Part shown: positions 41,431-63,630 of the stretch, one piece after another
Layout: every line of letters starts with the position of its first letter
Position numbering within the stretch: the first letter of the stretch is position 1
From: an uncultured Clostridia bacterium
Lineage (GTDB): Bacteria; Bacillota; Clostridia; Oscillospirales; CAG-382
Assembly: GCA_947305675.1 (NCBI GenBank)
Contig: CAMZED010000001.1
Location: 1,589-65,588, forward strand
Length of the DNA: 64,000 nucleotides
Direction of reading: 5' to 3'
Translations under genes and position numbers: made by a program
Notes under the pieces: model-generated
Told to the model about the DNA's origin: nothing
The model's database searches: none
What the model saw: only the letters and a program-made list of their open reading frames with translations

Positions 41431-41443
41431 ATACCCCTTTAGA

Positions 41444-41578
41444 TCAATAGGTGAGCCTTACTCTGCCTTTTGCACGTCTTCTTTTAAGAACCTTCCTGCC
41501 GTTGGCGGTAGCCATTCTCTTTCTGAATCCGTGTTCTGCTTTTCTGTGCCTTTTTTTGGGTTGGTACGTTCTGAGCAT
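41444..41578 (-). CDS. rpmH: 50S ribosomal protein L34
   Basis: Below the track size cut-off. Reverse complement reads [44 protein letters not shown], with AAAGGAGGA RBS. Confidence 0.95.
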
Positions 41579-41668: not shown

Positions 41669-41698
41669 ATTATATAACGAAACCGGGCGGTTTGTCAA
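41669..41698 (-). promoter_or_regulatory. sigma-A promoter of rpmH-rnpA-yidD-yidC-jag
   Basis: Minus strand: TTGACA (41698-41693), 16-18 nt, TATATAAT. The -35 element overlaps the stop codon of the upstream GT gene. Confidence 0.6.
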
Positions 41699-43101
41699 GG
41701 ACAATTGACAATTTTTTGCTCCGTATTTTTCATCTTCGGCAGAAGAGCGGCAAAAAGCGCGCCGGTAACAACGGTAAGCGCGATATATCTGAAGTCCATT
41801 GTGCAGAAATGGGGGTATTTAAAGCAGAACGCCGTGTAGGAAACGATCTGCGTCGCGGTGAAAATAAGCATTGCGGTGATCTCCGCCGGGGAAAAACCGT
41901 AACCGAAGCCTTTTTCGGGGTGCAAAGTACGGTTTGCCGTTCTTATTATCATTGCGACCGCTCCGGCGACCGCGGCAATGCAGAACAGCACGGCGATTAT
42001 AAACGCCGCCGCCGCGAAAACATAGGTCAGGGCGTTATCGGCGCCGATATAATATTCGCCGTAAAGCGAGCTTTTCAAAGCACCTAACGGAATGTTGTAT
42101 TCGAAATATTCAAACCCGTAACGTTCGATAAGCGTTTTTGTGGCGCGCGCCGGGAAAACGCCGTTGTCGAACAGCGATGAAAAATCGAAAAACCGTTCGA
42201 AAACACTGCGGAACCCGATATACTGACTGCTTTTTTCCGAAAGCGCCGGGATATAAAGCGGATCAGCGCCGAAAAGCACGTAATTTCTTATTTGCCACCA
42301 CAGCGCAAGCGGAACGCAAACCGCGCCGAAAACAGCAAACTGCCCGAAAATACGGCATTTTTGCCTGCTTTTTATGAATTTCACAAGGAACAGAAACGCA
42401 ATGGCGACAGCGACCGTACCCGCCGAAAGCTTTGCCATCATCGCACAGCCGACCGATACCGCAACGGCGGTTATCCGCTTAAAAGTCGGCTCACGGTACC
42501 ATTTTATCGCCAGATAAAGCGACAGAAGCATAAGTAAAAGCGACAAAACGTCGTTATTTATGCTCCCCGAAAGGAATACGAAGGTCGGGTGGAATATTAC
42601 CAAAGCCGAAGCCAGAATAAGTCTTTTGCCTTTTAAACCGAAAAGTTCGAACAGTTTTACCGAAATAAAAGATATAAGCGTTGAGCAGACCAGCGAAAGG
42701 ATCTGAAGGTTCTCACGCGCGGATTCAAAAGATATTCCCAGTGCAAGTTGGATCTTCATCCACACGGCGCAGATAAAATGCCACAGCGGAGGATGATAAA
42801 ACTGCCAGTGGTTGTCGGTCACGTTGAAATCCGGCAAAAAGAAGCTGAAAAAACCCGATGATCCGACGTCGTCGGCGGAAATGCTTCCGTTCATAAGATA
42901 AAGAACATAGGCGAAATGCCCCTCTTTATCGGCGACGTCGTGCTGGCGGATGTTCCAGCCGGTGTTTATTATATAAGCCAGTTTTATCAAAAACCCGGCA
43001 AGCAGCAGGAAAAAAATTATTTTTCTGTCGGTTATCTTAATATTTTTGAGCCTTTTGAAAATATTCAACTTACAGCCCCCTATCCGATCCTTTTTGATCA
43101 T
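41695..43101 (-). CDS. polytopic membrane protein, ArnT/PMT-like (GT-C, family 39-like) glycosyltransferase
   Basis: About 12 predicted TM helices, with an early loop ..RQHDVADKEGHFAY.. Start may be TTG 43068, which follows AGGGGG. Family call is by topology and pattern only. Confidence 0.55.
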   Translation of the reverse strand: MIKKDRIGGCKLNIFKRLKNIKITDRKIIFFLLLAGFLIKLAYIINTGWNIRQHDVADKEGHFAYVLYLMNGSISADDVGSSGFFSFFLPDFNVTDNHWQFYHPPLWHFICAVWMKIQLALGISFESARENLQILSLVCSTLISFISVKLFELFGLKGKRLILASALVIFHPTFVFLSGSINNDVLSLLLMLLSLYLAIKWYREPTFKRITAVAVSVGCAMMAKLSAGTVAVAIAFLFLVKFIKSRQKCRIFGQFAVFGAVCVPLALWWQIRNYVLFGADPLYIPALSEKSSQYIGFRSVFERFFDFSSLFDNGVFPARATKTLIERYGFEYFEYNIPLGALKSSLYGEYYIGADNALTYVFAAAAFIIAVLFCIAAVAGAVAMIIRTANRTLHPEKGFGYGFSPAEITAMLIFTATQIVSYTAFCFKYPHFCTMDFRYIALTVVTGALFAALLPKMKNTEQKIVNCP

Positions 43102-43231: not shown

Positions 43232-44566
43232 ATGGAACAAAACGAGTATAAACAAATCTACGGTTTTGTCATCGATTCGCTTAAAAAGAATTATTCCGCG
43301 CCGACGGTAAGCCTTTGGTTCGAACCGATGAAGATCGTTAAACTTAATAACAGTTCGATAACCGTTTCGCTTCCGCAAAACCGCAAAGCGTTCGTCGAAG
43401 CGCAATATTATCAGCAGCTTAAACAGACGTTTGCCGAGGTATTGGGCACCGAGGTCGAACTTGTGCTTGTATCCGAGGAAGAAGAAGCCGAAATGATCTC
43501 CGAAACGCAAAACGAAAACGTTTCTGGAATAAAATCGGAATATAAAATGCGTTACAACCCGGAATACACTTTTAAAAATTTTGTTGTCGGGAAATCAAAT
43601 CAGCTCGCCCAGGCGGTTTCGCTCGCGGTGGCAAACCATCCCGCCGAACTCAACAACCCGCTGTTTTTATACGGCAACTCCGGTCTGGGAAAAACGCACC
43701 TGCTTTTCGCAATAATCAATCATATCCGCGAAAATCATCCCGATTACAAGATCCTTTACGTCACAGGAGAAGAATTTACAAACGAGCTTATTGAATCTCT
43801 TGCACAGAAAAAGCCGATGACCTTCCGCGAAAAATATCGCAATCTCGACGTGCTTCTTATCGACGATATTCAGTTTATCGCCGGAAAGATGTCGGTTCAG
43901 GAAGAATTTTTCCACACGTTTGACACTTTGTTTAAACTGAACAAGCAAATAATTCTTGCGTCGGACCGCGCTCCGTCGCTTATAAACAACCTTGAAGAAC
44001 GGCTTCACAGCCGGTTTATGATGGGTATGATAGCCGACATCCAACCGCCCGACAAAGAATTGCGAATGGCGATTTTCCGCCGCAAAGCGATCGATTACGG
44101 CGTCGATCTTAAAATGGACGTTCTGCTTTATCTTGCCGAAAATATCACAACAAACATCAGGCAGATAGAGGGGTCTCTGAAAAAACTCAAAGCCCACACG
44201 CTCATCACCGGCGAGGAATGTACTCTTCCGGTGGCAAAAGCGGTACTTTCCGACTTTTTCGCCACCGCAAAAAACGACGAAACGATCGTGGACCGCATTT
44301 TCGAATCAGCTTCCAAACGTTACGGCGTTACAAAAGAAGACATAAAAAGCACAAAAAGAAACGCCGAGATCGCAATGGCGCGCCATTATTCTATGTTTCT
44401 TATAAGACAGACAACAAATCTTTCGCTCAATTCCATCGCAAAACTCTTCAACAAAAAAGATCATTCCACGGTCATAAACTCGATCGGCTTTATCGAACGT
44501 AAAATGAAAGCCGAACCGGCTTTTGAACGGGAGATCGAACAAACCGTACAGGAACTCAAAAACTGA
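43232..44566 (+). CDS. dnaA: chromosomal replication initiator protein DnaA
   Basis: NPLFLYGNSGLGKTHLL (Walker A), LLIDDIQF, and C-terminal ..HSTVINSI.. DNA-binding helix. Start moved to ATG 43232. Confidence 0.95.
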   Translation: MEQNEYKQIYGFVIDSLKKNYSAPTVSLWFEPMKIVKLNNSSITVSLPQNRKAFVEAQYYQQLKQTFAEVLGTEVELVLVSEEEEAEMISETQNENVSGIKSEYKMRYNPEYTFKNFVVGKSNQLAQAVSLAVANHPAELNNPLFLYGNSGLGKTHLLFAIINHIRENHPDYKILYVTGEEFTNELIESLAQKKPMTFREKYRNLDVLLIDDIQFIAGKMSVQEEFFHTFDTLFKLNKQIILASDRAPSLINNLEERLHSRFMMGMIADIQPPDKELRMAIFRRKAIDYGVDLKMDVLLYLAENITTNIRQIEGSLKKLKAHTLITGEECTLPVAKAVLSDFFATAKNDETIVDRIFESASKRYGVTKEDIKSTKRNAEIAMARHYSMFLIRQTTNLSLNSIAKLFNKKDHSTVINSIGFIERKMKAEPAFEREIEQTVQELKN

Positions 44567-44589: not shown

Positions 44590-44760
44590 TACGCTTCCAC
44601 AACTTATAAACATTTTTAACACAACGATGCGTTATTAAAACATCGGCTTTTGAACGGTTTTCGGGTTTTACACACAATCCACACGGGCTACTAATACTTA
44701 ATACTACTTTTAAATACATTATCTTACTGTTTTTTGTATTTTTTTACCGTTTTCGGGTAA
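44590..44760 (+). other. oriC unwinding module in the dnaA-dnaN spacer (weak DnaA boxes, GC cluster, DnaA-trio-like repeats, AT-rich DUE)
   Basis: TTTTACACA (44666-44674) and CAATCCACA (44675-44683), then CGGGC, then CTA CTA ATA CTT AAT ACT ACT (complement 3'-GAT GAT TAT GAA TTA TGA-5'), then ~50 bp of >80% AT. Confidence 0.6.
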
Positions 44761-52411: not shown

Positions 52412-53218
52412 TTACATATTGTCCAGCCAGTTCCCCTCGAACAGCTCAATGGCGCCGCGGTCGCAGGCGGCGGCGAGTTTAGGGTCGACGGGGATCTTAG
52501 CCACCTTCGGGATCCCGTATTTTTCGGCAAGTTTTTCAACTTTGCTTTCGCCGTAGACGTAATGGTCCTTTCCGCAGTCGGGGCAATGGAAATAGGAATA
52601 GTTCTCGACAATGCCGATCACCGGGATATTCACCATTTCGGCGAGCTTGACCGCTTTTTCGACGATCATCGAAACAAGGTCCTGCGGGCTTGTGACGATG
52701 ATCATTCCGTTTATCGGGATCGATTGGAAAACGGTGAGCGGCACATCGCCGGTTCCGGGAGGCATATCGATGAACATCACGTCGGTCTCGCCCCAGTTTA
52801 CGTCGGTCCAGAACTGCTTCACCGCGCCGGCGATTATCGGTCCGCGCCAGGCGACGGGGTCGGTCTCGTGTTCAAGCAGAAGGTTCAGCGACATTATTTT
52901 TATCCCCGTCCTGCTTTCGGCGGGGGTCATAAGCGTTCCGTCGCCGGTAACTCCGCCCTTCAGCCCGAAAACGCGCGGGATGGATGGCCCGGTTATATCG
53001 GCGTCAAGTATGGCGGTTTTGTCGCCGCCGCGCTGTGCGTTCACAGCCAGGAGCGAGGTGACGAGCGATTTGCCGACTCCGCCCTTGCCGCTTACCACGG
53101 CAATGACTTTTTTGATCACACTGCCTTTGCCGGGGTTTTCGATCAGACTTTCCGGCGCACTTTCGCGGCTCGCGCAGGCGGAAGAGCAGGTCGAACAGTC
53201 ATGAGTGCAGTTTGCCAT
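52412..53218 (-). CDS. mrp: Mrp/NBP35-family Fe-S cluster carrier ATPase
   Basis: VIAVVSGKGGVGKS deviant Walker A. CPDC pair ..HCPDCGK.. N-terminal Cys cluster CTHDCSTCSSAC. Confidence 0.85.
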   Translation of the reverse strand: MANCTHDCSTCSSACASRESAPESLIENPGKGSVIKKVIAVVSGKGGVGKSLVTSLLAVNAQRGGDKTAILDADITGPSIPRVFGLKGGVTGDGTLMTPAESRTGIKIMSLNLLLEHETDPVAWRGPIIAGAVKQFWTDVNWGETDVMFIDMPPGTGDVPLTVFQSIPINGMIIVTSPQDLVSMIVEKAVKLAEMVNIPVIGIVENYSYFHCPDCGKDHYVYGESKVEKLAEKYGIPKVAKIPVDPKLAAACDRGAIELFEGNWLDNM

Positions 53219-53243
53219 AATTTATACTCCTTTTTTGTTTTTC

Positions 53244-53930
53244 CTATTTTTTAGCGCCTTTCAAAAATTTTACCGAGCGCTCTACCGAATCTTTCGAGTT
53301 GCCCCAGGGGAGGTCGTCAAAGCGGTAATCAAACTTTTTGCAGAAAAGCGAAATATCGTCTTTAAGCTCTGAAAGATAAGCGTTTATTTTGCCGTTGGCA
53401 GCTCTCGCCAGCTCGGAATACCCGTCTTTCGAAAGCACGCGCGCCCCGGCTTCCAACAGTCTGCGGTAATGCGGCAGACAGATGAACCCGACCGAATCGA
53501 ACTTCCGGCGGAAATCCTTTTCCTCGTCGAAAAGAAAGGCGGCGGTCTCGTACATTTTCCCGATCTTTTCGTCGATCCGGTCGCAGACGTAACAGGATGA
53601 ATCGAGTTTTTCGATCCTTTCGCGGCTTTTCGCAGAGATATCGCGCGCAAACACTCCGCCGGGTTTAAGCCCGGATTTAAGCGATTCAAGATGGCTTTCA
53701 AGAATAAGCGCCACGCCGAGTTTGTTGTTCCCCGCGATCATTTTTGCAAAATGGCGCTCACAGAACCCTTTTTCGTTGGTGATCTGACGCACTTCCGGCT
53801 CCATCATAGAAGCGCCGAGTATAAGATCGAGCTCGGTCTTTTCAAGGTTCTCAAAAAGGCGGCAAAAGGGACATCCGTCGCCGTGATCAAACGCCTCGTT
53901 GACCGGGATAGTATAAAGATGTTCCTTCAT
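53244..53930 (-). CDS. conserved hypothetical Cys-rich protein (possibly DUF6062-like)
   Basis: 228 aa with two CxxC pairs (CPFC, CYVC). 25 nt upstream of mrp on the same strand. Family name recalled, not verified. Confidence 0.5.
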   Translation of the reverse strand: MKEHLYTIPVNEAFDHGDGCPFCRLFENLEKTELDLILGASMMEPEVRQITNEKGFCERHFAKMIAGNNKLGVALILESHLESLKSGLKPGGVFARDISAKSRERIEKLDSSCYVCDRIDEKIGKMYETAAFLFDEEKDFRRKFDSVGFICLPHYRRLLEAGARVLSKDGYSELARAANGKINAYLSELKDDISLFCKKFDYRFDDLPWGNSKDSVERSVKFLKGAKK

Positions 53931-53995
53931 AAATGTATTTTTCCTTTCGGTCCGTTGACATAATCAGTTTTCGCAAAAAAGATTATTTTCAAAAG

Positions 53996-54139
53996 TAATC
54001 CACATTTTCCACAGGGTTTTCCACAACCTGCCGGGAAAATCCCCCGATTTTTGCCTTATTTTCCCGAACCCGTCGCAACGATATCCACAGTTTGCACATA
54101 GTTTTCCACAACTTGTGCGGCAACATTATGTTATATACA
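53996..54139 (+). promoter_or_regulatory. DnaA-box cluster (5 strong and 2 weak boxes, all co-oriented)
   Basis: Strong boxes: TAATCCACA 53996-54004; TTTTCCACA 54005-54013; TTTTCCACA 54017-54025; ATATCCACA 54081-54089; TTTTCCACA 54102-54110. Weak boxes: GTTTGCACA 54090-54098; TTATATACA 54131-54139. Confidence 0.75.
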
Positions 54140-54150
54140 CGATTGAAAAA

Positions 54151-55161
54151 TTATACGGTTTTTGTCGCATAAGCGTTAAGGTCGAGCCCGGCTTTTGCGC
54201 CGGAAAGATATTCGTAATAAGCCTGCGCGCCGATCATCGCGGCGTTGTCTCCGCAAAGCGAAAGAGGGGGAAGATACAGCTTTGCGCCGAATTTTTCGGC
54301 GGAATTTTTAAGCGCCAGACGCAGATGCGAGTTTGCCGCCACGCCTCCGGCGAGCACGATATTTTGGGCGCCCTCGCGGGTCAGCAGCAGTTCGAGCCTG
54401 GAAGTCACCGCCCCGACAAGGCTTGCCGTAAAAGAGGCGGCGACGTCGGCGCGGAATTCGTCGTCGATCACCCTGCCGCGCTGCGTTTCGCCGTGGACGA
54501 GATTTATGACCGCCGTTTTCAGCCCGGAAAAGGTAAAATCGTAATCCGAGCCGTCGATCGATCCGGCGTTGAAGCGGTATTTGGTTTTGTCCCCCGCCGA
54601 AGCGAGCCTGTCCATCGCCGCACCGCCGGGGTAGGGCAGCCCGAGAACGCGCGCGCATTTGTCGAAAGCCTCGCCCGCCGCGTCGTCGCGTGCGCAGCCG
54701 ATCAGTTCATAATCGGTATAACTGTTCGCCCGCATAAGCGAAGTATGCCCGCCCGACACCACCAAAGCGATAAAAGGCGGTTCAAGGTCGGGATGCACAA
54801 GGTAATTCGCGGCGACGTGCCCCCTTATGTGGTGTACCGGTATAAGCGGTTTTCCGGAAGAATACGCCAGCCCTTTGGCGAAAGACACCCCGGTCAGCAA
54901 AGCGCCGATAAGCCCCGGCGCATAGGTCACCGCGATAAGGTCGATATCTTCAAGCGAAAGATCTGCTCCCGCCAGCGCTTCGCTCACCACACCCGATATC
55001 GCCTCGGTGTGCGCGCGTGAAGCGATCTCCGGCACGACTCCGCCATAAAGCGCGTGTATATCTATTTGCGAAGCGACTTTGCCGCAAAGCAGCTTCCTGC
55101 CGTCCTCGACCACCGCGGCGGCGGTCTCGTCGCAGGACGATTCTATTGCCAGAATTTTCAT
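54151..55161 (-). CDS. tsaD: tRNA N6-adenosine threonylcarbamoyltransferase TsaD
   Basis: MKILAIESSCDETAAAVV..VVSGGHT..; 336 aa. Confidence 0.95.
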   Translation of the reverse strand: MKILAIESSCDETAAAVVEDGRKLLCGKVASQIDIHALYGGVVPEIASRAHTEAISGVVSEALAGADLSLEDIDLIAVTYAPGLIGALLTGVSFAKGLAYSSGKPLIPVHHIRGHVAANYLVHPDLEPPFIALVVSGGHTSLMRANSYTDYELIGCARDDAAGEAFDKCARVLGLPYPGGAAMDRLASAGDKTKYRFNAGSIDGSDYDFTFSGLKTAVINLVHGETQRGRVIDDEFRADVAASFTASLVGAVTSRLELLLTREGAQNIVLAGGVAANSHLRLALKNSAEKFGAKLYLPPLSLCGDNAAMIGAQAYYEYLSGAKAGLDLNAYATKTV

Positions 55162-55589
55162 AATATCTTCTCCATTAATATTGCGTCGGTCCCTTTATAG
55201 AAGCCTTTGCGCCTGCCGACGGGCAGATACCCGCAGCGTTCATAAAGTCTCAACGCCGCGGTGTTGTCTTCGGCCGCTTCAAGCACCGTCTTTTCGCCGC
55301 CGAGCGATATTACCGTTTTTTCAAGCTCGCGCAATAATTTGCCCGCGGCGCCTTTCCGGCGGAATTCCGGCGCTACCGCAAGGTTCATAATCTCGCACAC
55401 TCCGCAGCAATACACCGCCGAAATTATTCCGGCGGCGGTGCCGCCGTATTCGGCGACAAGATATATATTGCCGTTTTTTGCGGCGTTTTTTATTTGTTCT
55501 TCGCTCCAGAACGTGTCAAGACATTCGCGCTCGATGGCGTAAGCGCGGGCATAATCGCCGCTTTCCGCGGGGCGGACGTTGAATTCCAT
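55158..55589 (-). CDS. rimI: ribosomal-protein-alanine N-acetyltransferase
   Basis: GNAT fold: ..IMNLAVAPEFRRKGAAGKLL.. 4-nt overlap with tsaD. Confidence 0.8.
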   Translation of the reverse strand: MEFNVRPAESGDYARAYAIERECLDTFWSEEQIKNAAKNGNIYLVAEYGGTAAGIISAVYCCGVCEIMNLAVAPEFRRKGAAGKLLRELEKTVISLGGEKTVLEAAEDNTAALRLYERCGYLPVGRRKGFYKGTDAILMEKIL

Positions 55590-55590
55590 A

Positions 55591-56295
55591 TCACAAATCC
55601 GTCGCGGGGGCGCCCGGGTCGTAATCCGGGTTGCCGATCATCCTCGAAAGGACGTCGCGCGGGCAGATCACGGTTTTGTTGATCGACCTGTCGCGCAGAT
55701 AAAATCTGCCGTCGTTATCGCCGAAAAACACTACGACGTAATAAAGCCCGGGGTATTTTTGCGACAGCAGACGTACGAAATAGCGGTTGGTGTAAGCCAT
55801 ATTGTCGTAATTCAGATCGACCGCCTCGCCTTCGTCGACCGCGCGTGCGATGGTACGGCAAAGTTCGGAATCCTGCGTTTCGTTTATGCCGCGCTGATCC
55901 TCTTCAAGATATTCGTCGTCGGCAAAGAAGCTTGCGATCCAGCGCGTGTTGGAAGAATCGTATATCCTTGCGGCGATCGGATCGAAATCCGTAACCGATA
56001 TATCGCCCGACGAAGCGCTGCGATAGACCAGAAGTTCACCGCTGTCCTCGACGCAAAGAAAATCCTTTGCCGATTCAAATTCGACTTCGTAGACCTGTTC
56101 GTTGCCGTATTTTATATATTCGCCGCCTTTTTCAACGGCATAAACCGAAAACATCCGGCAAAGGACGTATTCCGTCCCGGTGGCGGGGACGATAAAACCG
56201 TCCGCGGTTATATCCGCCCTGCGCGAGCAGGAACACATACCCGCAAGGCATAAGGCGGCAAGCAGTAAAGCCGATAATTTCTTAATCATTTTCAA
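55591..56295 (-). CDS. putative lipoprotein of unknown function
   Basis: MKMIKKLSALLLAALCLAGMCSC signal and lipobox. Tightly packed between the deaminase gene and rimI. Confidence 0.6.
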   Translation of the reverse strand: MKMIKKLSALLLAALCLAGMCSCSRRADITADGFIVPATGTEYVLCRMFSVYAVEKGGEYIKYGNEQVYEVEFESAKDFLCVEDSGELLVYRSASSGDISVTDFDPIAARIYDSSNTRWIASFFADDEYLEEDQRGINETQDSELCRTIARAVDEGEAVDLNYDNMAYTNRYFVRLLSQKYPGLYYVVVFFGDNDGRFYLRDRSINKTVICPRDVLSRMIGNPDYDPGAPATDL

Positions 56296-56786
56296 TATCC
56301 GATCTGTCCGAGACTATCGTCGTTTTCCACCCAGTCGGCGGGGTAATAAACCGAATATCTTTCGCTGTCTTCGCGGACGATCACGCGCTCGATCCCGGCG
56401 TTGATGACCAGCCTTTTGCACATCTGGCAGCAGGTAGTCCCCGGTTCGATCAGCCCGGTCTTTGCGTTCACACAGCAAAGATAAAGGTCGGCGCCGAGCA
56501 TACGCTCACGCGGGGCGGCGATTATCGCGTTCGCTTCGGCGTGGACGGAACGGCAAAGCTCATATCTTTCGCCGCGCGGGATGTTCATTTTGTCGCGAAG
56601 GCAAAATCCCAGATCGCAGCAGTTTTGCCTTCCGCGCGGGGCGCCGGCGTATCCCGTGGAAATTATAACGTCGTCTTTTACGATTATCGCGCCGAATTTG
56701 CGCCTTAAACAGGTGCCGCGTTCGGTCACCGTTTGGGCAATATCCAGATAATAGTTTATCTTGCTTCTTCTCGAGTCCATCGCCAA
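56292..56786 (-). CDS. dCMP/cytidine deaminase-family zinc enzyme (ComEB-like)
   Basis: HAEANAI and CCQMC (PCxxC-type) zinc motifs. Confidence 0.8.
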   Translation of the reverse strand: MAMDSRRSKINYYLDIAQTVTERGTCLRRKFGAIIVKDDVIISTGYAGAPRGRQNCCDLGFCLRDKMNIPRGERYELCRSVHAEANAIIAAPRERMLGADLYLCCVNAKTGLIEPGTTCCQMCKRLVINAGIERVIVREDSERYSVYYPADWVENDDSLGQIGY

Positions 56787-56887
56787 ACCCTCCGAAAGAT
56801 TCCCGCGATCCGCCTCTTTTAAAGCGCGCCGATCACGATATGTAACAGTTTAACAAAACAGCGCTGTTTTGTCAATATCGTCGCACA

Positions 56888-56925
56888 AAAAAAGGCAGAG
56901 CGCTTTCTTTGCGCTCCGCCGGGTA
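56888..56925 (-). terminator. terminator after the vWA protein gene
   Basis: Minus strand: GGCGGAGCGC-aaagaaa-GCGCTCTGCC followed by TTTTTTT. Confidence 0.7.
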
Positions 56926-56935
56926 TTTTTAAGAG

Positions 56936-59068
56936 TTAATCTTCTATGACTTCACACATAAGCAGTTCAAGGGTGACGTCGCATTGCGGCATCAGGAACG
57001 AGGCTTTCCAAAGCCCGTCGGATCCGTCGTATTCGGGTATAAGTTCTTTAATTTTATTACCGACGGGGTCAAGCACCGCGATCACCTCGTAGCTTTCGCT
57101 GTTGAACCCGGTCTTTTCGCGGTAATAATCCTCCAGCGCGACATAGATACGCATGCCCTCGGTGTATTTATAATCCGCCTGCGTGCAAATTATGCGGTCT
57201 TTCGACTTCTCGCCTACCGTGATCCCGAACCCGTCTCCGCCTTCGCCGGCGAAACGCGCGGTTATGACCGCGGGGCTGTCGGGCATAACGAAGACATAGC
57301 TCCAATAACCGGAACCGTCTTCCGCCTTTTCAATAAGGCTGCCGTTCACATAAAGGATCATATCGGCGTCGTAAATGATTCCGGCGCGGATCTCTACCGT
57401 CTCGCCGTGGAGTGCGGATCTGGGCGCCGAGATAAGTTCTGATTTTACGGATTCGTTTACGTCGTATTTGATCGCGTAACGTTTTTCGGGCGCGACGTAA
57501 TCAAGCCCGCAGTATTCGCAAACGACCCTTATCATGCATTCGTTAAGCGGTTCGACGTTCTTTTCGCTCACGCTCGCCTCGGTGTGGCTGTTGCCGATGC
57601 CGGAATCGTCGGTAAGATAAATATAAGTGCCGCCGGTCGTTATTGCAAACGAGCGAAGAATCACTTCGGTCCCGGTGTCGACCCCCGACGAAGCGACGGG
57701 GATGATCCTTATACCTTCCGCGGCGGCTTTACCGAGCGAGGAATTGATGTTTTCGTTTATGCCCCGGATCTCGGATTCGTCGTGGGGAGGAGCGTCAAGC
57801 ACAAAGAAGCAGAGTTTTACCGCGTTTTCGCGCCATTGATGTCCGGAAACCGCGTTTTCAAGCGCGGTGTGGACCGCTTCGGGCCAATCGCCGCCGCCGT
57901 CCGAACGCTGTTTGCTTATCTGATCGATGCATTCATTTATATTGCTGCGGAAATCGAAATATTTAACTACGTATTCGTCGCCCTCGTCGCGGTAGAAGTT
58001 AACGCTTACGCGGATCGAAAGCTGTTCGCCCGCCTTTGCGATGCGGTCGACCATATCGGCAAGCTCAACTTTCAGATATTCCAGCTCGTCCGACATACTG
58101 CCCGTCGTGTCGATCATAAGCATAAGGTCAAGCTGGGTTATGCTCTTTCCTTCGGGGGGGATCTCAAGCGTTACCGAGGCGTACTGTTCGCTCGCCGCAA
58201 ACAGTTTTATCTCTTTTTTGACGCCCGCCGCCCTTACCGTCGCGGTCGATTTGTCGAGTTCGGCGGGGAAGAAAAGGTATGCTTTTCCGTCGATCCCGCT
58301 GCGCGACTTCCAGATCACCTTGCCGTCGGATTCAAGTTCAACTTCGGTGCCGAACAGCGACGCTCCGCCGGATTCAAGCGTTACTTCCACAACATTACGT
58401 GTTGAGAACCCGCGGGAAGAGATGATACTTGCCCATTCCGGGTCCGCGGCGCGTTTGAGCCATTCGCCGAGGTTCTTTAAGTCGCTCCATTCCGAAGCGG
58501 TAAGCGTCCCGGCGCGGATGGCGTTATTGTAGTCGCCGTAATAGTCGATCCGATCGAGTTCGCCCTCGAATGATTCGACCGGCTTTTCGTAGTCGGTCCT
58601 GTCCGTGATCGTGTAGCCGTCCTTTACCATTGAGTAACCGGATTTGTCGCCTACTGCGGATACGCCTTCGGGATAGTCGGCCGCTGCGTCTTCGTGTTTG
58701 AATTCATCCTCAAGGCTCGCGTCGCCGCGGATAACTCCGTCGCTGTAAGAGGCATCTTCGGCCGCGCCGCCTTTGTTGTCCGGGATTTTGGTTCCTTCGC
58801 TGTTTGACGCGCCGTCCGTGTTTTTGCTCACGACGCCGTCACCCTGATTCTTTGCTTCGGTCCTGCGCGAAGTTACGCCGATAACTCCGCCGATGATCAG
58901 ACAAACCGTCAGCGCCGCCGCGACCAGAATATATCCGATCCGGCGTGCGGAAATTTTCGCTGTCTGCGGCTGTTCCGAAGGTTCAAACGCCCCGGCGGGA
59001 AGTATCTTCCCGGCTTCGGGAGCTTCGACCTTGTCAAAAGCCGATCTTATCTTTTTTTCAAAACGCAT
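56936..59068 (-). CDS. single-pass membrane protein with extracellular von Willebrand factor A domain (putative anti-sigma/sensor partner of the ECF sigma)
   Basis: Short cytoplasmic N-terminus, TM helix IGYILVAAALTVCLIIGGVIGV, and vWA MIDAS LMIDTTGSMSDE. Starts 16 nt after the sigma gene stop. Confidence 0.65.
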   Translation of the reverse strand: MRFEKKIRSAFDKVEAPEAGKILPAGAFEPSEQPQTAKISARRIGYILVAAALTVCLIIGGVIGVTSRRTEAKNQGDGVVSKNTDGASNSEGTKIPDNKGGAAEDASYSDGVIRGDASLEDEFKHEDAAADYPEGVSAVGDKSGYSMVKDGYTITDRTDYEKPVESFEGELDRIDYYGDYNNAIRAGTLTASEWSDLKNLGEWLKRAADPEWASIISSRGFSTRNVVEVTLESGGASLFGTEVELESDGKVIWKSRSGIDGKAYLFFPAELDKSTATVRAAGVKKEIKLFAASEQYASVTLEIPPEGKSITQLDLMLMIDTTGSMSDELEYLKVELADMVDRIAKAGEQLSIRVSVNFYRDEGDEYVVKYFDFRSNINECIDQISKQRSDGGGDWPEAVHTALENAVSGHQWRENAVKLCFFVLDAPPHDESEIRGINENINSSLGKAAAEGIRIIPVASSGVDTGTEVILRSFAITTGGTYIYLTDDSGIGNSHTEASVSEKNVEPLNECMIRVVCEYCGLDYVAPEKRYAIKYDVNESVKSELISAPRSALHGETVEIRAGIIYDADMILYVNGSLIEKAEDGSGYWSYVFVMPDSPAVITARFAGEGGDGFGITVGEKSKDRIICTQADYKYTEGMRIYVALEDYYREKTGFNSESYEVIAVLDPVGNKIKELIPEYDGSDGLWKASFLMPQCDVTLELLMCEVIED

Positions 59069-59084
59069 AATGATCAGTCTCCTT

Positions 59085-59621
59085 TTAATATGCTGCCCTT
59101 AGTTTTTTAATTGCGCGTGAATAGCGCTTTCGCGCCGCTTCCGCGGTGATCCCGACTATCCCGGCGATCTCGCGGAACTTAAAGCCGTCGACTGCTTTAA
59201 GCACCACTATATCGCGGTCGGTGCCGTCGAGAATTGCCAGAAGACGGTTCATTTTGTCAGCCTCGGCATACGATTCGGCAAAATCGCCTTCACGGGAGAG
59301 GGAATCAAGGACTTCGCCGTCCTCCGCGGTCTCTTTTTGCCGTCGGCGAAGCAGGTCTATCGCCGAGTTCCGCGCGACAGACATAGCCCACGCCCTTGCG
59401 TTACCGTCGTCGCGGTAACCCGAGGCGCCGCGAAGGATCTTCAAAAAAGCGTCCTGCAAAGCGTCTTCGGCGTCGGTGGGGTTCTTAAGTATCGTATAGG
59501 CGAGAGCATACATCGGCTTGCCGAGCAGATCATATAAAACGGCAAGTGCGGTTTGATCGCCTTCCGATAATCTTTTCATCGCCGCGGCGCAGTCGTATTT
59601 ATTTCCCGGCCTGTCTGACAT
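59085..59621 (-). CDS. ECF-type RNA polymerase sigma-70 family factor
   Basis: Region 2 ..DAEDALQDAFLKI.. and region 4 ..FKFREIAGIVGITAEAARKRYSRAIKKLR. Start moved to ATG 59621 after AAGGAGGTG. Confidence 0.85.
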   Translation of the reverse strand: MSDRPGNKYDCAAAMKRLSEGDQTALAVLYDLLGKPMYALAYTILKNPTDAEDALQDAFLKILRGASGYRDDGNARAWAMSVARNSAIDLLRRRQKETAEDGEVLDSLSREGDFAESYAEADKMNRLLAILDGTDRDIVVLKAVDGFKFREIAGIVGITAEAARKRYSRAIKKLRAAY

Positions 59622-59721
59622 AAGAGCCACCTCCTTTGGGGCTTTCACATATTAATACGGACTTATCGGCAAAAAACGGACAAAAAATTTCCGTTTCTGC
59701 CGTTTTTTATAATAGCATATG

Positions 59722-59776
59722 AAAACAAAAAAATCAAGCCGGGATAAACGATCAAAAAAATATCATTTATCCCGGC
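59722..59776 (-). terminator. terminator of the spoIIIA operon
   Basis: Minus strand: GCCGGGATAAA..TTTATCCCGGC 11-bp stem, then TTGATTTTTTTGTTTTC. Confidence 0.7.
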
Positions 59777-59821
59777 TATCCCGGCGTAAATCCTTTTTAT
59801 GCGCACTTCGCGCGGAAAGGT

Positions 59822-60469
59822 CTATTGTTTTTTCGCTTCGACAACGGTGATGTTCTCGACGGGGATCCCCGCCTGTTCATAGACGATCTCGGTTATCTGA
59901 ACGAGTTCCTCGGGAACGAGCCCCTCGGTGTTCACGATTATCGAGCAGGTCTTTCCGCTTATCACCGCGCAGCAATCGGCGATCCCTTTTGCGCGGATGA
60001 GCGTTTCGATATTCGCCTCGGCGCTCATTTCATCGGCGATCGCGGCGATCGAAGTCAGCGCCGATTCCTTGGCGTCGGGCATTGCGTCGGGGCTGTCGGC
60101 AATGGTGCGAAGGACCTCAAGCGCGCTGTCGCGCACCTGAGTGCGGTTTATAAGCGCCATGGCAAAGAAGTCGCCCTCGTTTGCGGCGCCGCCTTTTTCG
60201 GTCGGCTGCGACGAAACTTCGGCTTCCGCCGAGGCACGCGTTTCGGAATCGACCAGCAGAGTGTTGCCGAGCACTTTCGCGCCCTCCGGATCGACCGTCT
60301 CCGGCGAATCACCGCGCTTCGATACCAGCGAACCGACCGCCACCGTTATGCTGACCAGGACCAGACATCCTACGGTTATAAACGCCTTTGTTCCGATGAA
60401 TTTTTTCCACTCGATATTTTTGATTTTTCCCGTAAGTTCTTTGCATTTTTGTTTAAGATCCATAACCAT
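59822..60469 (-). CDS. spoIIIAH: stage III sporulation protein AH
   Basis: Last gene of the spoIIIA cluster. N-terminal TM helix then a YscJ/FliF-like domain. ATG 60463 is better spaced from the GGAGG RBS. Confidence 0.8.
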   Translation of the reverse strand: MVMDLKQKCKELTGKIKNIEWKKFIGTKAFITVGCLVLVSITVAVGSLVSKRGDSPETVDPEGAKVLGNTLLVDSETRASAEAEVSSQPTEKGGAANEGDFFAMALINRTQVRDSALEVLRTIADSPDAMPDAKESALTSIAAIADEMSAEANIETLIRAKGIADCCAVISGKTCSIIVNTEGLVPEELVQITEIVYEQAGIPVENITVVEAKKQ

Positions 60470-60505
60470 GCCTCCGCATTTGTTTATTAACAGGTTTTTG
60501 TGGTA

Positions 60506-61027
60506 CTATGATTGTACGCTGATGCGGTTGCTCTTTATGTCAAAAAGCGCGCACATCAACTCGATAATTTTGTATTGCGTTTCGTAAGAGGCTCCGCGGC
60601 AGACCACCGCCACCCCCGCCACGGAGGGCATCGATTCCGAAACCAGAGTCGGCGTTTTGTTCCCGCCCGATTCGGCAAACGCAACGGTTTTGTCGGTCTG
60701 TTTGCTGCCCGAACCCGGTTCCGAGGTCTCGCGCACGTGTTGATCGGTCGCATATATCCGGCGATAACCTTCCGAAAGAGTTATTACCACCCTGCAATCC
60801 TTTACGCCGCCGAGTTCTTTTATAAGCTCTTCGGCTTTTTCTTCAAGCAGCAGGCAGTAATCCGCCGCGGTCTCGTTGTTTTCCGATACCGTCGGCTCGG
60901 TCTTTTCGCCGCCGGGAAGGATCAAAAGCATTATCCCGGCGAACGCCCCCAGAACCGCAAAGATGAGTTTTTTGCTTCCGGCGGCTTTTTCAAACAGACC
61001 GAAAACGCCTTTTTTATCCTTCGACAA
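60506..61027 (-). CDS. spoIIIAG: stage III sporulation protein AG
   Basis: Position in the operon, N-terminal TM helix, C-terminal ring-forming domain ..VAGVAVVCRGA.. Confidence 0.8.
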   Translation of the reverse strand: MSKDKKGVFGLFEKAAGSKKLIFAVLGAFAGIMLLILPGGEKTEPTVSENNETAADYCLLLEEKAEELIKELGGVKDCRVVITLSEGYRRIYATDQHVRETSEPGSGSKQTDKTVAFAESGGNKTPTLVSESMPSVAGVAVVCRGASYETQYKIIELMCALFDIKSNRISVQS

Positions 61028-61469
61028 CTTCCGCTTCTCCCCCCAACCGGTTTTTCAAAAAATCTTCCACCGCCTGTTTTTTGCCCTTATCGGCTATTCC
61101 GACGGTTATCCGGTTTATCACCGCGCCGTCCTCCCGCCAATCTATTTCTATGTCGGCGTACAGCGGATTTATGCCGAATTCGCCGGAAATAATATCGCAA
61201 ATATATTTTTCGCTTTGCCGCTTTGTCTCTTCCCGCGCAAGCGAGTCAAGGTCGGGTCCGGATAAAGCCGGAACGGAGGTATCGGAACCCGGCGCGGATA
61301 TTTCGCTTCCGACCGAGCCGATAACGCCTTTAAGCGGAAGCAGCATAAGGCACAAGCAGACGAGCGAAGCCGCGAATTTCATATGCTTTTCGTATTTTTC
61401 GCCGGCGATAAGCGAGCAAAGCCCTCCGATCACCGCGGCAAGCATCAAAGAAAAAAAGTAATCTCTCAT
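61014..61469 (-). CDS. spoIIIAF: stage III sporulation protein AF
   Basis: Position in the operon and two N-terminal TM helices. Confidence 0.75.
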   Translation of the reverse strand: MRDYFFSLMLAAVIGGLCSLIAGEKYEKHMKFAASLVCLCLMLLPLKGVIGSVGSEISAPGSDTSVPALSGPDLDSLAREETKRQSEKYICDIISGEFGINPLYADIEIDWREDGAVINRITVGIADKGKKQAVEDFLKNRLGGEAEVVEG

Positions 61470-61481
61470 CAGGCACTCCTT

Positions 61482-62561
61482 TTAAATGCTTACAAATACC
61501 GCCATTGCGATCAGCGCCGCCGCTCCCGCGCCGAGCGTAAGGGCAAAAAGGATCCCGGTCATCCCGCCGACCGTTGAAAGGAACCGCGATTCCGGTTCGC
61601 GCCCCAAAGCTTTTGCCGCGGCGGAAGAAAGCGAAAACACCACGCGCGCGCACAAAGTCACCGCCGCCGGAGGCAGTACCGCCGCAAATATCATCACCAC
61701 CCCGGCGGTGCCGACCGTGCCTTTTACCACCGCCGCCGAAGCCGCCAGCGTGCGGTAGGCGTCGCCGAGTATGCCGCCGATCACCGGGACGAACGCCCCG
61801 GAAGCAAACCTTACGCTGCGTGATACGTAACTGTCGCCCGTCGCGGCGACCGAAGTCTGTATGTAAAGCGTAAAACCCAGGATCGTAAAAACAAACGACA
61901 TTATCGCCGTCGCGGTCGTTTTTACCGCGTTCGCCACGGACGAAATATCGATCCCGCCCGGGATCGCGCCGCACAGCGCCAGCGCAAAGCAAACGCTTAA
62001 AAGCGGGAGCAGCAGTTTGGAACAGATAATTTCAAGCACCGTCAAAAAAAGCAGGAATCCCGAACTGCTCGCCGCGCCCGCCGCGGCGTTGCCTCCCGCC
62101 GCGTAGAGCGAAGCCATCACCGGCTGCAGCGAGGTGATCGCCAGCGAAAGCGATTGCATACCGGCGTTAACGAACACAAAGACCTCGTAGATCAGCGAAT
62201 AAGCCGCGGCCGACAGCAGCAAAAGCGATATATATCCGCCCGCCTTGCCGAGCGCTTCGGATCCGTCGCCCAGCGCCGCCATTATTCCGCAGAATATTAT
62301 TGCGGCGAGCAAAACGCCCGCGCCCGCCGCAATTGTGCCGGAGTTTTCGCTGATCGCTGAGAAGGTTATGTTCAACGCCTTTTCAAAAACATTCACCGTT
62401 TTTTTGCCCGAAAGCTCGTCCCCGCTCAGCGCGGAAGATTCAAGCCTGTCGGCACCCGTCTCGGCGGCGATCCGCTCGGTATTGTCTTCTGCGCGCGCAT
62501 AAAACGGCAATATCAGCAAGACCGAAACGGTCGCCAATAACAACGCGGCGGCTTTTTTCAT
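61482..62561 (-). CDS. spoIIIAE: stage III sporulation protein AE
   Basis: Signal peptide plus a polytopic Ala/Gly-rich membrane protein. Position in the operon. Confidence 0.85.
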   Translation of the reverse strand: MKKAAALLLATVSVLLILPFYARAEDNTERIAAETGADRLESSALSGDELSGKKTVNVFEKALNITFSAISENSGTIAAGAGVLLAAIIFCGIMAALGDGSEALGKAGGYISLLLLSAAAYSLIYEVFVFVNAGMQSLSLAITSLQPVMASLYAAGGNAAAGAASSSGFLLFLTVLEIICSKLLLPLLSVCFALALCGAIPGGIDISSVANAVKTTATAIMSFVFTILGFTLYIQTSVAATGDSYVSRSVRFASGAFVPVIGGILGDAYRTLAASAAVVKGTVGTAGVVMIFAAVLPPAAVTLCARVVFSLSSAAAKALGREPESRFLSTVGGMTGILFALTLGAGAAALIAMAVFVSI

Positions 62562-62941
62562 TGCATCAGTTCCTTTGCGGTATTCAAAAGTTGTTCGATC
62601 AGCGGCAGGCTCAGGACCACTATCCCCACCTTGCCCGCCAATTCAACGTGCGAAGCGAGCGAGCTTTCTCCGCAGTCACGGCAGACGTCGGCGCTCATCC
62701 TGCAGCACAGAGATATCGCCAAAGCCTTTACCATTACCGTAAAATATCCTTCCGCCCCGGTCGACGCGGAATAGCCTTTTACGGCTTCCAAAAAAGGCCC
62801 CAGCCCGTCCAGGACATAGACAAGCGTTATTATACCCGCCGCCGCGGCGGCAAGATCGGCAAGCTCGGGGCGGATCCGTCGCAGGACGGTCAACGCCGTT
62901 ACCGCCGCCGCCGAAAAAACGCAGACCGCCAGCGGATTCAC
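62558..62941 (-). CDS. spoIIIAD: stage III sporulation protein AD
   Basis: 127-aa four-TM protein. Position in the operon. Confidence 0.85.
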   Translation of the reverse strand: MNPLAVCVFSAAAVTALTVLRRIRPELADLAAAAAGIITLVYVLDGLGPFLEAVKGYSASTGAEGYFTVMVKALAISLCCRMSADVCRDCGESSLASHVELAGKVGIVVLSLPLIEQLLNTAKELMQ

Positions 62942-63132
62942 AGCCCGAAAGCGCTTTTAAGCGCGTTGAACAGCGAGGCGATCTCGTTCACCAGCATAAG
63001 CGCAACGATCACCACTCCCGCCACCGTCACAAAGGTCGCCTGCTCGTCCCTTCCGTTTTTCTGAAGTATCTGGCAAGCCACGCCGACGATAAGCCCTATT
63101 CCGGCGATTTTAAGTATAAGCGATATGTTCAT
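62938..63132 (-). CDS. spoIIIAC: stage III sporulation protein AC
   Basis: MNISLILKIAGIGLIVGVACQILQKNGRDEQATFVTVAGVVIV is the typical 64-aa SpoIIIAC. Confidence 0.9.
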   Translation of the reverse strand: MNISLILKIAGIGLIVGVACQILQKNGRDEQATFVTVAGVVIVALMLVNEIASLFNALKSAFGL

Positions 63133-63144
63133 AGTGTTTCTCCG

Positions 63145-63630
63145 TCAAATCAAAAGTATCGCCGCAAGCAGACCGATCAGCAGCGCGCACACCCGAACGC
63201 TGCGCTGCCGGTCCTTCAGCCCCGCTCCCGTCTTCTCGCGCTCGGACATCAAAAAAGCCGAAAACTCATCCAGCCTCTTTTCCTGATCGTCATAGCCGAG
63301 TTTTCCGAGCTCCGCCCCGAAAGCAAGGCAGGCTTCCTTTGCCTCGCCGCCGATGGGCAGTTGTTCCGCGGCGGATTCCCACAGGACGGAAATATCGCCG
63401 CTTTGCCGCATTATCGGCAGGAACCCCTGCTTTTCAAGCCGTTCGTTGCGGTATTGCGAAAAAATTATTCTCAGCGGGACCCGCCCGCTTTTTATCCTGC
63501 GGCGAAGATATTCGTTCATATCATAAAGCGCGTCGAGCGTTTTTAAGGTTTCTTTCTCATAAGCGGCGACGACCGCTCCGACCGCCCACGAAGAAAGCAC
63601 CAGCGCCAAAGCGCCGATATATCTCAACAT
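63145..63630 (-). CDS. spoIIIAB: stage III sporulation protein AB
   Basis: Size, N-terminal TM helix, and position in the operon. Confidence 0.85.
   Translation of the reverse strand: MLRYIGALALVLSSWAVGAVVAAYEKETLKTLDALYDMNEYLRRRIKSGRVPLRIIFSQYRNERLEKQGFLPIMRQSGDISVLWESAAEQLPIGGEAKEACLAFGAELGKLGYDDQEKRLDEFSAFLMSEREKTGAGLKDRQRSVRVCALLIGLLAAILLI

Follow-up and report, generated by a model that had tools for sequence, protein, structure and literature searches.

The closest described system to the element analyzed here is the extra-origin DnaA-box cluster just downstream of gcp (=tsaD) in Bacillus subtilis, DBC[gcp-ydiF], which is documented by Ishikawa 2007 (PMC2533591), Okumura 2012 (PMC3245932), and Smith & Grossman 2015 (PMC4447404). 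It is stably bound by DnaA in vivo, is described as "highly conserved" at its place after gcp in Bacillus, Geobacillus, and Oceanobacillus, and lies at about 644 kb of the B. subtilis chromosome, far from oriC (Table 2 in PMC2533591). Its role is unclear because it sits between convergent 3' ends; at other B. subtilis clusters, namely, those of dnaA, ywlC, and yydA, DnaA acts as a repressor (PMC2533591). Deletion of all six clusters leads to early initiation in B. subtilis, the single deletion of DBC[gcp-ydiF] has no effect on the ori/ter ratio, and DBC[gcp-ydiF] alone, placed at 353 degrees, does not rescue the sixfold deletion (PMC3245932). The null result of the single deletion and the lack of rescue leave titration by DBC[gcp-ydiF] unproven even in B. 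subtilis. For the Bacillus clusters, a 2026 review cites only the 2012 deletion study (PMC13220808).

The whole stretch of DNA analyzed here, 64 kb in length and referred to as the window, carries a cluster of this kind behind tsaD. By itself, the cluster adds a new case to a known type of element and, judged by its place and the direction of its boxes, it is the positional and orientational counterpart of DBC[gcp-ydiF]. The initial annotation of the window had suggested a B. subtilis cluster just downstream of gcp, and the three studies named above bear this out. As far as the searched literature shows, the composite architecture described below, its spread in Oscillospirales (Clostridia), and the link to tRNA-Thr(CGU) are new.

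Box content and density of the tsaD-side cluster

The motif scan of the 64-kb window finds five 9-mers with at most one mismatch to TTATCCACA, all on the plus strand within 115 bp, and two weaker boxes:

53996, plus strand: box TAATCCACA, at most one mismatch to TTATCCACA
54005, plus strand: box TTTTCCACA, at most one mismatch to TTATCCACA, middle box of module 2
54017, plus strand: box TTTTCCACA, at most one mismatch to TTATCCACA
54081, plus strand: box ATATCCACA, at most one mismatch to TTATCCACA
54090, plus strand: weak box GTTTGCACA, three mismatches to TTATCCACA, at the middle-box place of the repeated module
54102, plus strand: box TTTTCCACA, at most one mismatch to TTATCCACA
54131: weak box TTATATACA, two mismatches to TTATCCACA

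The five boxes in a single orientation and the two weaker ones that the initial annotation had described were all found again, as was the 220-bp gap that they fill between the 3' end of tsaD and the gene for a Cys-rich protein (53931 to 54150). Most of the boxes are TTTTCCACA, i.e., an imperfect consensus. A DBC is taken here as at least four boxes with at most one mismatch in about 100 to 150 bp of intergenic DNA, and the intergenic gap holds five boxes and two weaker ones. The distance to the 3' end of dnaA is 9.4 kb (annotated as 9.3 kb), and the cluster is indeed stronger than the surroundings of dnaA, where neither flank has an intergenic box with at most one mismatch. The DnaA encoded in the window has its helix-turn-helix domain, with DHSTV where E. 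coli DnaA has DHTTV.

Over both strands of the window, 20 9-mers with at most one mismatch were observed, compared to 8.1 expected from shuffles. The next densest 150 bp contains two boxes versus five in the tsaD-side cluster, and 300 Markov-1 simulations of the window gave a maximum of one (267 runs) or two (33 runs) boxes per 150 bp; a density equal to that of the cluster was thus not reached in the simulations. Since the simulations and the remainder of the window stay at two or fewer boxes per 150 bp, base composition does not account for the density. A chance cluster is ruled out by the shuffles, the density in the rest of the window, and the simulations, and we consider the DnaA-box cluster to be genuine and under selection.

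Internal organization of the intergenic element

The element is described 5' to 3' on the minus strand, which is the tsaD coding strand:

54151 to 55161, minus strand: tsaD, tRNA t6A37 threonylcarbamoyltransferase (Pfam ID PF00814, E value 9e-88)
53931 to 54150, minus strand: whole intergenic element from the tsaD stop to the DUF6062 start, with conserved blocks and variable spacers in the alignment
54125 to 54134, plus strand: tsaD-proximal flanking motif ATTATGTTAT, reading ACATAAT on the minus strand, invariant, resembling an XerD arm
54081 to 54110, minus strand: module 1, tsaD-proximal three-box array TGTGGAAAA-CTA-TGTGCAAAC-TGTGGATAT, GTGGA cores invariant in six genomes
54032 to 54066: central inverted repeat CGGGAAAAT / ATTTTCCCG between the modules, 9-nt arms 17 nt apart
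53996 to 54025, minus strand: module 2, distal three-box array TGTGGAAAA-CCC-TGTGGAAAA-TGTGGATTA
53955 to 53963, minus strand: distal flanking motif TTATGTCAA(C), 62 nt past the start of module 2, ATTATGT.AAC invariant, matching the XerD-binding arm of dif

In the cluster, a 33-nt three-box module is directly duplicated, with copies (53998 to 54030 and 54083 to 54115) that are 85% identical and 85 bp apart. The cluster starts 41 bp past the tsaD stop. Both modules have box offsets of 0, +9, and +21; read on the tsaD strand, the first two boxes of each are separated by 3 bp, and the second and third abut. This duplicated three-box order had been absent from the initial annotation. Module 2 matches the triplet core of 14 metagenome elements, except for the last box and the 3' tail.

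The proximal flanking motif is inverted relative to the distal copy and overlaps the weak box TTATATACA at 54131. In relatives, the central repeat is found at the same place as CGAAAAT-N6-ATTTTCG or CGAAAAA-N6-TTTTTCG, and analogous repeats in other lineages read GAAAAC-N3-GTTTTC and GCAAAC-CGC-GTTTGC. In the window, the central inverted repeat has no U tract, and the terminator scan gave no match there. No Rfam covariance model matched positions 53500 to 54600 at an E value of 1 or below, and the six related loci searched gave tRNAs only. A small open reading frame of 45 amino acids (53989 to 54126, minus strand) was rejected as a coding sequence because of non-triplet indels among relatives, including a 10-nt insertion in the window.

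Conservation in Oscillospirales and in Bacillaceae

A genome scan with the TsaD of the window yielded 80 Oscillospirales loci at 55 to 79% identity, and boxes were counted in 77 species. In these 77 loci, 49 boxes fall within the 400 bp past the tsaD stop, whereas the box frequency in the remaining parts of the loci predicts 9.1 (Poisson p = 2e-20). TGTGGAnAA is the reading on the tsaD coding strand for 41 of these 49 boxes, versus a background of 84:93. Two or more boxes follow tsaD in 13 of the 77 loci, with at least three in ten, and the other 64 are without such a cluster of at least two. A TsaD profile search toward other Clostridia orders returned only uncultured Oscillospirales-like proteins.

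Aligning the window with its five nearest relatives (L001, L002, L003, L005, and L006) reveals as invariant columns six GTGGA box cores, ACATAAT on the left, ATTATGT[C/A]AAC on the right, and the central GAAAA, whereas the spacers drift among the six genomes and the window has a 10-nt insertion. The boxes are hence kept in relatives, their cores being identical in all five, and the footprint in this alignment demonstrates purifying selection on all six box cores.

The Bacillaceae sample consists of three loci (L082, L205, and L206) from species other than B. subtilis itself. Each shows tsaD, a terminator, seven to eight boxes, and then a convergent ABC-F gene. All boxes are TGTGGATAA on the tsaD coding strand, every one in the orientation relative to tsaD that is seen in the window, with pairs spaced by 9 and 12 bp. 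One locus, L206, has the tail TGTGAATAACTTTGTAAG in common with the Oscillospirales core. No boxes follow tsaD in Listeria (L083) or S. aureus (L207). The suggestion that the position is conserved between Bacilli and Clostridia therefore holds in part: the cluster recurs in the same orientation in Bacillaceae and Oscillospirales, but its presence is patchy (13 of 77 loci, and none in Listeria and S. aureus). A common ancestral element is no more than suggested by the orientation in common and the ATAACTTTGTAAG tail, and the patchy presence in both classes fits homology by inheritance and convergence by repeated gain alike. The element is dispensable, given that most of the Oscillospirales sampled lack it, as do Listeria and S. 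aureus.

Genomic contexts of the box triplet

Metagenome contigs were scanned for the triplet pattern alone, and the 80 loci returned represent 53 distinct instances, with the following contexts:

tRNA-Thr(CGU), co-oriented, 170 to 470 bp downstream (1.1 kb in L141 only): 9 of 53 instances
tsaD ending 20 to 245 bp upstream on the same strand: 7 of 53 instances
type IIA topoisomerase B paralogue starting about 200 bp downstream: 5 of 53 instances
dnaA-dnaN spacer (L133): 1 of 53 instances

Among the neighbors of the remaining 40 triplets, no Pfam family was seen more than three times. Only a downstream tRNA-Thr(CGU) is thus more frequent than the tsaD context, and most tsaD instances have this tRNA gene too; five loci (L065, L116, L124, L132, and L162) have the order tsaD, cluster, tRNA-Thr(CGU). 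All tsaD-linked instances group with the Oscillospirales TsaD at 60 to 86% identity. The adjacency to tRNA-Thr(CGU) ties the site to the t6A pathway, the tsaC/ywlC gene of which is DnaA regulated in B. subtilis. An alignment of 14 elements gives the core TGTGGAAAAC-NN-TGTGGAAAN-TGTGNATAA-CTCNTTGTA, followed after about 20 nt by TTATGTAAA.

Flanking motifs resembling the XerD arm of dif

In a k-mer count over 23 tsaD-linked elements, TTATGTAA/TATGTAAA ranks second after the box itself and occurs in 12. Exact TTATGTAAA is found 44 times within -300 to +330 of a triplet (48 kb), compared to three times in the other 464 kb, and it is carried by 27 of the 53 distinct triplet instances, whatever their neighboring genes. 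Its offsets from the triplet are fixed at -106 to -110 and +58/+59, or in other classes at +67/+71 or, inverted, at -13/-14, and they hold in tsaD and non-tsaD contexts alike. In the genome set, TTATGTAAA follows tsaD in 8 of the 13 loci with boxes versus 5 of the 64 without, with pairs 158 to 168 bp apart bracketing the cluster. A reading of TTATGTAAA as a weak DnaA box is unlikely, with three mismatches that include the CCAC core.

The motif TTATGT[A/C]AA, which brackets the boxes at these fixed offsets, has exactly the sequence of the dif arm to which XerD binds. Compared with published dif lists, TTATGTCAAC at 53955 to 53963 (minus strand) and TTATGTAAAC(T) of the relatives match the 11-nt XerD arm. 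The string TTATGTAAACT, which occurs in dif papers, is what we take to be the XerD arm of B. subtilis dif. The XerD arm of B. subtilis dif is also present in proteobacterial dif sites, besides many further variants (PMC2731167), and in Frankia the arm reads TTATGTCAAGT (PMC3025954). Lone XerD sites (XDS) that unload SMC have been reported for the B. subtilis terminus, according to work cited in PMC11894783. A full dif site was rejected for lack of an XerC arm: CATAA-N6-TTATG does not occur in the window or in most triplet instances, and L124 and L104 have only GCATAA-N7-TTATGTAAAC. Because the XerC arm and the 6-bp center are missing, the flanking motifs are half-sites and not dif. Our literature search found no work linking DnaA boxes with XerD sites.

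The conservation of the flanking motifs and the central repeat together with the boxes implies at least one additional DNA-binding partner, and the resemblance of the arms would make a XerD-like protein a candidate. This opens the possibility that the element serves chromosome architecture or recombination. DnaA oligomers would sit on the triplets and a XerD-like protein on the two flanking half-sites, about 160 to 170 bp apart, and together they might mark a domain boundary, unload SMC, or create a hotspot for rearrangements. The concentration of the motif near the triplet, its independence from neighboring genes, its match to the dif arm of many phyla, the invariance of both arms in the clade of the window, and the reported XDS all speak for such a role, as do the flips of gene order around the element, seen among close relatives as well as between L097 and L116. 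Against it, the site lacks the XerC arm and 6-bp central region of dif, the identity of the binding protein follows purely from sequence resemblance, and the three Bacillaceae loci have no copy of the exact motif. We consider it unlikely as the main explanation.

A broader proposal is that the tsaD-side cluster is one member of an undescribed family of composite elements of about 200 bp in Clostridia (Oscillospirales), each combining the triplet with a short central inverted repeat and with half-sites of the XerD-arm type that keep a fixed distance. Besides other sites, such elements would be located at the 3' end of tsaD and the 5' end of tRNA-Thr(CGU) and upstream of the type IIA topoisomerase B paralogue. 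There, a XerD-like protein would cooperate with DnaA in origin-proximal chromosome organization or replication control, and the Bacillus gcp cluster would be a simplified relative. In this full form, the proposal is doubtful.

Relation to the downstream genes

On the other side of the cluster lie two genes and a candidate promoter:

53244 to 53930, minus strand: gene for a DUF6062 Cys-rich protein, directly downstream of the cluster (Pfam ID PF19538, E value 1.5e-74)
52412 to 53218, minus strand: gene for an Mrp/ApbC-type Fe-S cluster carrier ATPase, after the DUF6062 gene
53982 to 54011, minus strand: sigma-70-like promoter candidate of DUF6062-mrp, -35 TGGAAA at 54011 to 54006, 18-nt spacer, -10 AATAAT at 53987 to 53982

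The cluster could be a transcriptional operator only, through which DnaA or another factor controls DUF6062-mrp with no role in replication. The promoter candidate, called from a 9/12 consensus match that is not evidence of function, is the sole promoter-like site upstream of DUF6062, and its -35 lies inside the middle box of module 2. The terminator scan detected no intrinsic terminator after tsaD. Since the distal array covers the -35 and no terminator follows tsaD, bound DnaA would probably block transcription into the operon, and repression by DnaA at the dnaA, ywlC, and yydA clusters of B. subtilis provides a precedent (PMC2533591). An alternative sigma-70 promoter made of TTGTA(A/G)A and the NATTAT of the distal arm was not adopted: several metagenome elements have a suitable spacing of 16 to 18 nt, but the window has 21 nt, and there is no partner for the proximal arm.

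The relatives, however, do not share this arrangement. DUF6062 is convergent to tsaD in L001, L002, L005, and L006 and is located between tsaD and the cluster in L003, so that among the nearest relatives only the window has it co-oriented downstream of the cluster, and mrp is missing near tsaD in all 80 related loci. The boxes are invariant nonetheless, and the Bacillaceae cluster sits between two convergent 3' ends. The differing gene order and the absence of mrp mean that control of DUF6062-mrp cannot be the conserved function. The proposed DnaA-dependent regulation of the downstream Fe-S operon may thus stand as a lineage-specific effect but fails as a conserved role; on the present comparison, regulation of DUF6062/mrp by the cluster can only be lineage specific, and a purely transcriptional operator is quite unlikely.

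Other binding proteins and the replication origin

Some protein besides DnaA might instead occupy the repeats, such as a regulator of the AbrB type (TGGNA pairs) or the Spo0A type (TGTCGAA-like). TGTGGAAAA contains TGGAA and abutting boxes give TGGNA-N4-TGGNA, which would presumably suit AbrB, and the box is one mismatch away from the 0A box. This reading is very improbable given perfect TGTGGATAA boxes in L005, L006, L038, L116, L124, L132, and the Bacillaceae elements, the same triplet in the dnaA-dnaN spacer of L133, and a Bacillus counterpart that is experimentally DnaA bound.

Among the possible roles named in the initial annotation was that of a split origin with the cluster as its displaced half. 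The origin region of the window has the following features:

43232 to 44566: dnaA, its 3' end 9.4 kb from the cluster
44675 to 44750: candidate unwinding module in the dnaA-dnaN spacer

The core unwinding module of Firmicutes, as reportedly described by Richardson et al. in 2016, consists of a box, a GC cluster, DnaA-trios, and the DUE. In the window, the dnaA-dnaN spacer contains, in order, the box CAATCCACA (44675 to 44683), CGGG, trinucleotide repeats of the CTA CTA ATA CTT type, and an AT-rich tract, and it appears to hold its own unwinding module; no GC cluster, DnaA-trio, or AT-rich unwinding element was found beside the tsaD-side cluster. GC skew tracks gene orientation across the 64-kb window without a clear minimum and is uninformative at such a scale. 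Although this is the strongest box cluster in the 64 kb, dnaA is flanked by weak boxes only, and a PMT_2 membrane-protein gene sits in the usual rpmH-dnaA spacer, a bipartite origin is hardly credible: the dnaA-dnaN spacer reads as a complete module, nothing module-like adjoins the cluster, most element-bearing loci of relatives have no dnaA within 4 kb, and the B. subtilis element lies at about 644 kb.

Proposed function

We favor, as the probable though far from certain explanation, an extra-origin DnaA-box cluster, i.e., a high-affinity DnaA site that would act as a sink or organizer near oriC. The imperfect consensus of most boxes, the deletion results in B. subtilis, and the patchy occurrence count against this explanation. 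Of the roles considered, titration or initiation control has the most support, which comes from analogy alone. In such a scheme, DnaA would assemble on each array into a head-to-tail oligomer, with the strong boxes as nucleation sites. E. coli DnaA favors box pairs 2 to 3 bp apart and needs a double-box unit for stable binding (PMC11317965), and the 3-bp-spaced pair in each triplet matches this unit. The element, 9.4 kb from oriC, would hold DnaA (probably ATP-DnaA) away from the origin, and this sequestration would help restrain initiation and/or organize the origin-proximal chromosome, as has been proposed for the six B. subtilis clusters. The flanking half-sites and the central repeat may recruit at least one more protein into a higher-order complex. 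In this genome, DnaA on the distal array would probably also occlude the DUF6062-mrp promoter or block read-through from tsaD, a secondary effect confined to the lineage.

The same position, orientation, and box-pair geometry are found in a second Firmicutes class, with a clean phylogenetic footprint. This recurrence and the footprint point to selection for something tied to the 3' end of tsaD and not to any downstream gene. With their fixed spacing, the XerD-arm-like motifs provide a testable handle on the missing partner protein. Should the composite reading be wrong, the cluster would be an ordinary addition to the DnaA sites already known.

Comparison with known systems

Like the co-oriented arrays at oriC (the incC region in the dnaA-dnaN spacer of Firmicutes), the tsaD-side cluster uses the same box sequence in one orientation, suited to DnaA oligomerization, and one metagenome triplet (L133) lies in just such a spacer. 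Unlike them, it is not beside dnaA and has no GC cluster, DnaA-trio, or AT-rich unwinding element.

With datA, DARS1, and DARS2 of E. coli, it shares the nature of a chromosomal non-origin cluster of few DnaA boxes. A core of three boxes is found in DARS as well, and, as supposed for the element here, datA and DARS act with a second DNA-binding protein (IHF, Fis) at a fixed position. There is no sequence homology, the three boxes of each array in the window are all co-oriented, and nothing observed points to ATP hydrolysis or nucleotide exchange. IHF, Fis, and Hda are not known in Firmicutes (PMC13220808).

The flanking TTATGT[A/C]AA(C/T)(T) resembles dif and XDS in matching the 11-nt XerD arm across phyla, and a lone XerD-type site recalls the B. 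subtilis XDS, for which a non-recombination role in SMC unloading is reported. In contrast to dif and XDS, the element is origin proximal and not at the terminus, and its half-sites are paired at about 160 to 170 bp around DnaA boxes, where binding of a partner is putative.

The closest relation remains that to DBC[gcp-ydiF]. That cluster is DnaA bound by experiment, while the element of the window is known from its sequence. The neighbor in the window is the co-oriented DUF6062 gene instead of the convergent ydiF (ABC-F), and no ABC-F gene is found near the cluster. It consists of two discrete triplets 85 bp apart and not of one 49-bp pack of eight boxes, lies 9.4 kb from dnaA versus about 644 kb in B. 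subtilis, and keeps a central inverted repeat and flanking XerD-arm-like motifs, of which the Bacillaceae loci gave no exact copy. Both are packed, intergenic box clusters immediately past tsaD/gcp and outside oriC, both have abutting (9-bp) and 3-bp-spaced box pairs, and in neither does control of a conserved gene downstream account for the role.

A tRNA-Thr gene downstream of the DnaA-box triplet

The three-box DnaA-box module (the triplet) is followed by a co-oriented tRNA-Thr(CGU) gene in nine distinct metagenome instances (contigs L116, L124, L132, L162, L097, L086, L152, L151, and L141) and at one genome locus (L065, Oscillospirales), where the gene is located as follows:

5423-5497 of L065, tRNA-Thr(CGU) gene

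The distance from the triplet to the tRNA gene is 170 to 470 bp, with L141 being the sole exception (1.1 kb), and the arrangement is found whether or not tsaD precedes the triplet. tRNA-Thr is among the t6A37 substrates of TsaD. In the window, no tRNA gene lies downstream of the tsaD cluster, the DnaA-box cluster that follows tsaD.

When the metagenome contigs L097 and L147 are compared with L116, L123, and L131, the DNA is 97% identical from the tRNA-Thr gene onward. The genes on the upstream side are not the same, and identity across the cluster sequence is only about 78%. This pattern places a rearrangement breakpoint at or adjoining the DnaA-box element.

Neighbors of tsaD

Among the Oscillospirales loci fetched with the TsaD of the window (L001 to L080), DUF6062 is a repeated neighbor of tsaD (examples are L010, L014, L015, L023, L024, L027, L028, L039, L042, and L080), which hints at a functional link between DUF6062 and the t6A operon. 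It is located about 1.7 kb upstream of tsaD and co-oriented in about ten species, and downstream of tsaD it is convergent in four species and co-oriented in the window and L003.

In the same loci, 16 DnaA-box-like 9-mers form a smaller second peak within tsaD itself, 200 to 400 bp before the stop codon of the coding sequence; this peak is probably a conserved codon string and not a binding site. In S. aureus (L207, 2527-2955), the space downstream of tsaD is occupied by GC-rich tandem repeats of the TGTTGGGGCCCC type and is without DnaA boxes. On the metagenome contig L137, the tsaD reading frame runs on upstream into a dihydroorotate-dehydrogenase-like sequence, which probably reflects either a chimeric assembly or a fused gene.

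Origin region and gene orientation in the window

The relevant features of the window are the following:

~41440-41575, rpmH
41695-43101, - strand, PMT_2-family membrane glycosyltransferase gene (468 aa), between rpmH and dnaA
44567-44790, dnaA-dnaN spacer, with the weak boxes GCTTCCACA, TTATAAACA, and TTTTACACA, then CAATCCACA, CGGG, CTACTAATACTTAATACTAC, and an AT-rich tract
44675-44683, box CAATCCACA, after the three weak boxes

By its layout, the dnaA-dnaN spacer reads as a putative core origin-unwinding module; it contains no box within one mismatch of the consensus. The upstream half of the origin is usually located in the rpmH-dnaA spacer in Firmicutes. In the window, the spacers left around the PMT_2-family gene, from rpmH to dnaA, hold no strong DnaA boxes.

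Every sizeable open reading frame to the right of 52.4 kb (52412-63630) lies on the - strand, head-on to a fork that starts from the origin between dnaA and dnaN. With respect to oriC, the tsaD cluster points the other way from its B. subtilis counterpart. Together, these observations suggest that the block at 52412-63630 is inverted.

Triplets at other genes

In the metagenome contigs L094, L100, L087, L105, and L112 and their clusters, a type IIA topoisomerase B-subunit paralogue starts about 200 bp downstream of the triplet, scoring under both NCBIfam cutoffs, gyrB and parE. These loci also carry an inverted GTT(T/A)ACATAAC motif 2 to 4 nt upstream of the triplet.

Many of the neighbors of metagenome triplets without tsaD are translation or RNA-modification genes, with RsmH, MnmA, KsgA, BipA, a class I tRNA synthetase, and FtsY/Ffh being found among the neighbors. 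This echoes the similar bias noted for the genes neighboring the extra-origin DnaA-box clusters of B. subtilis.
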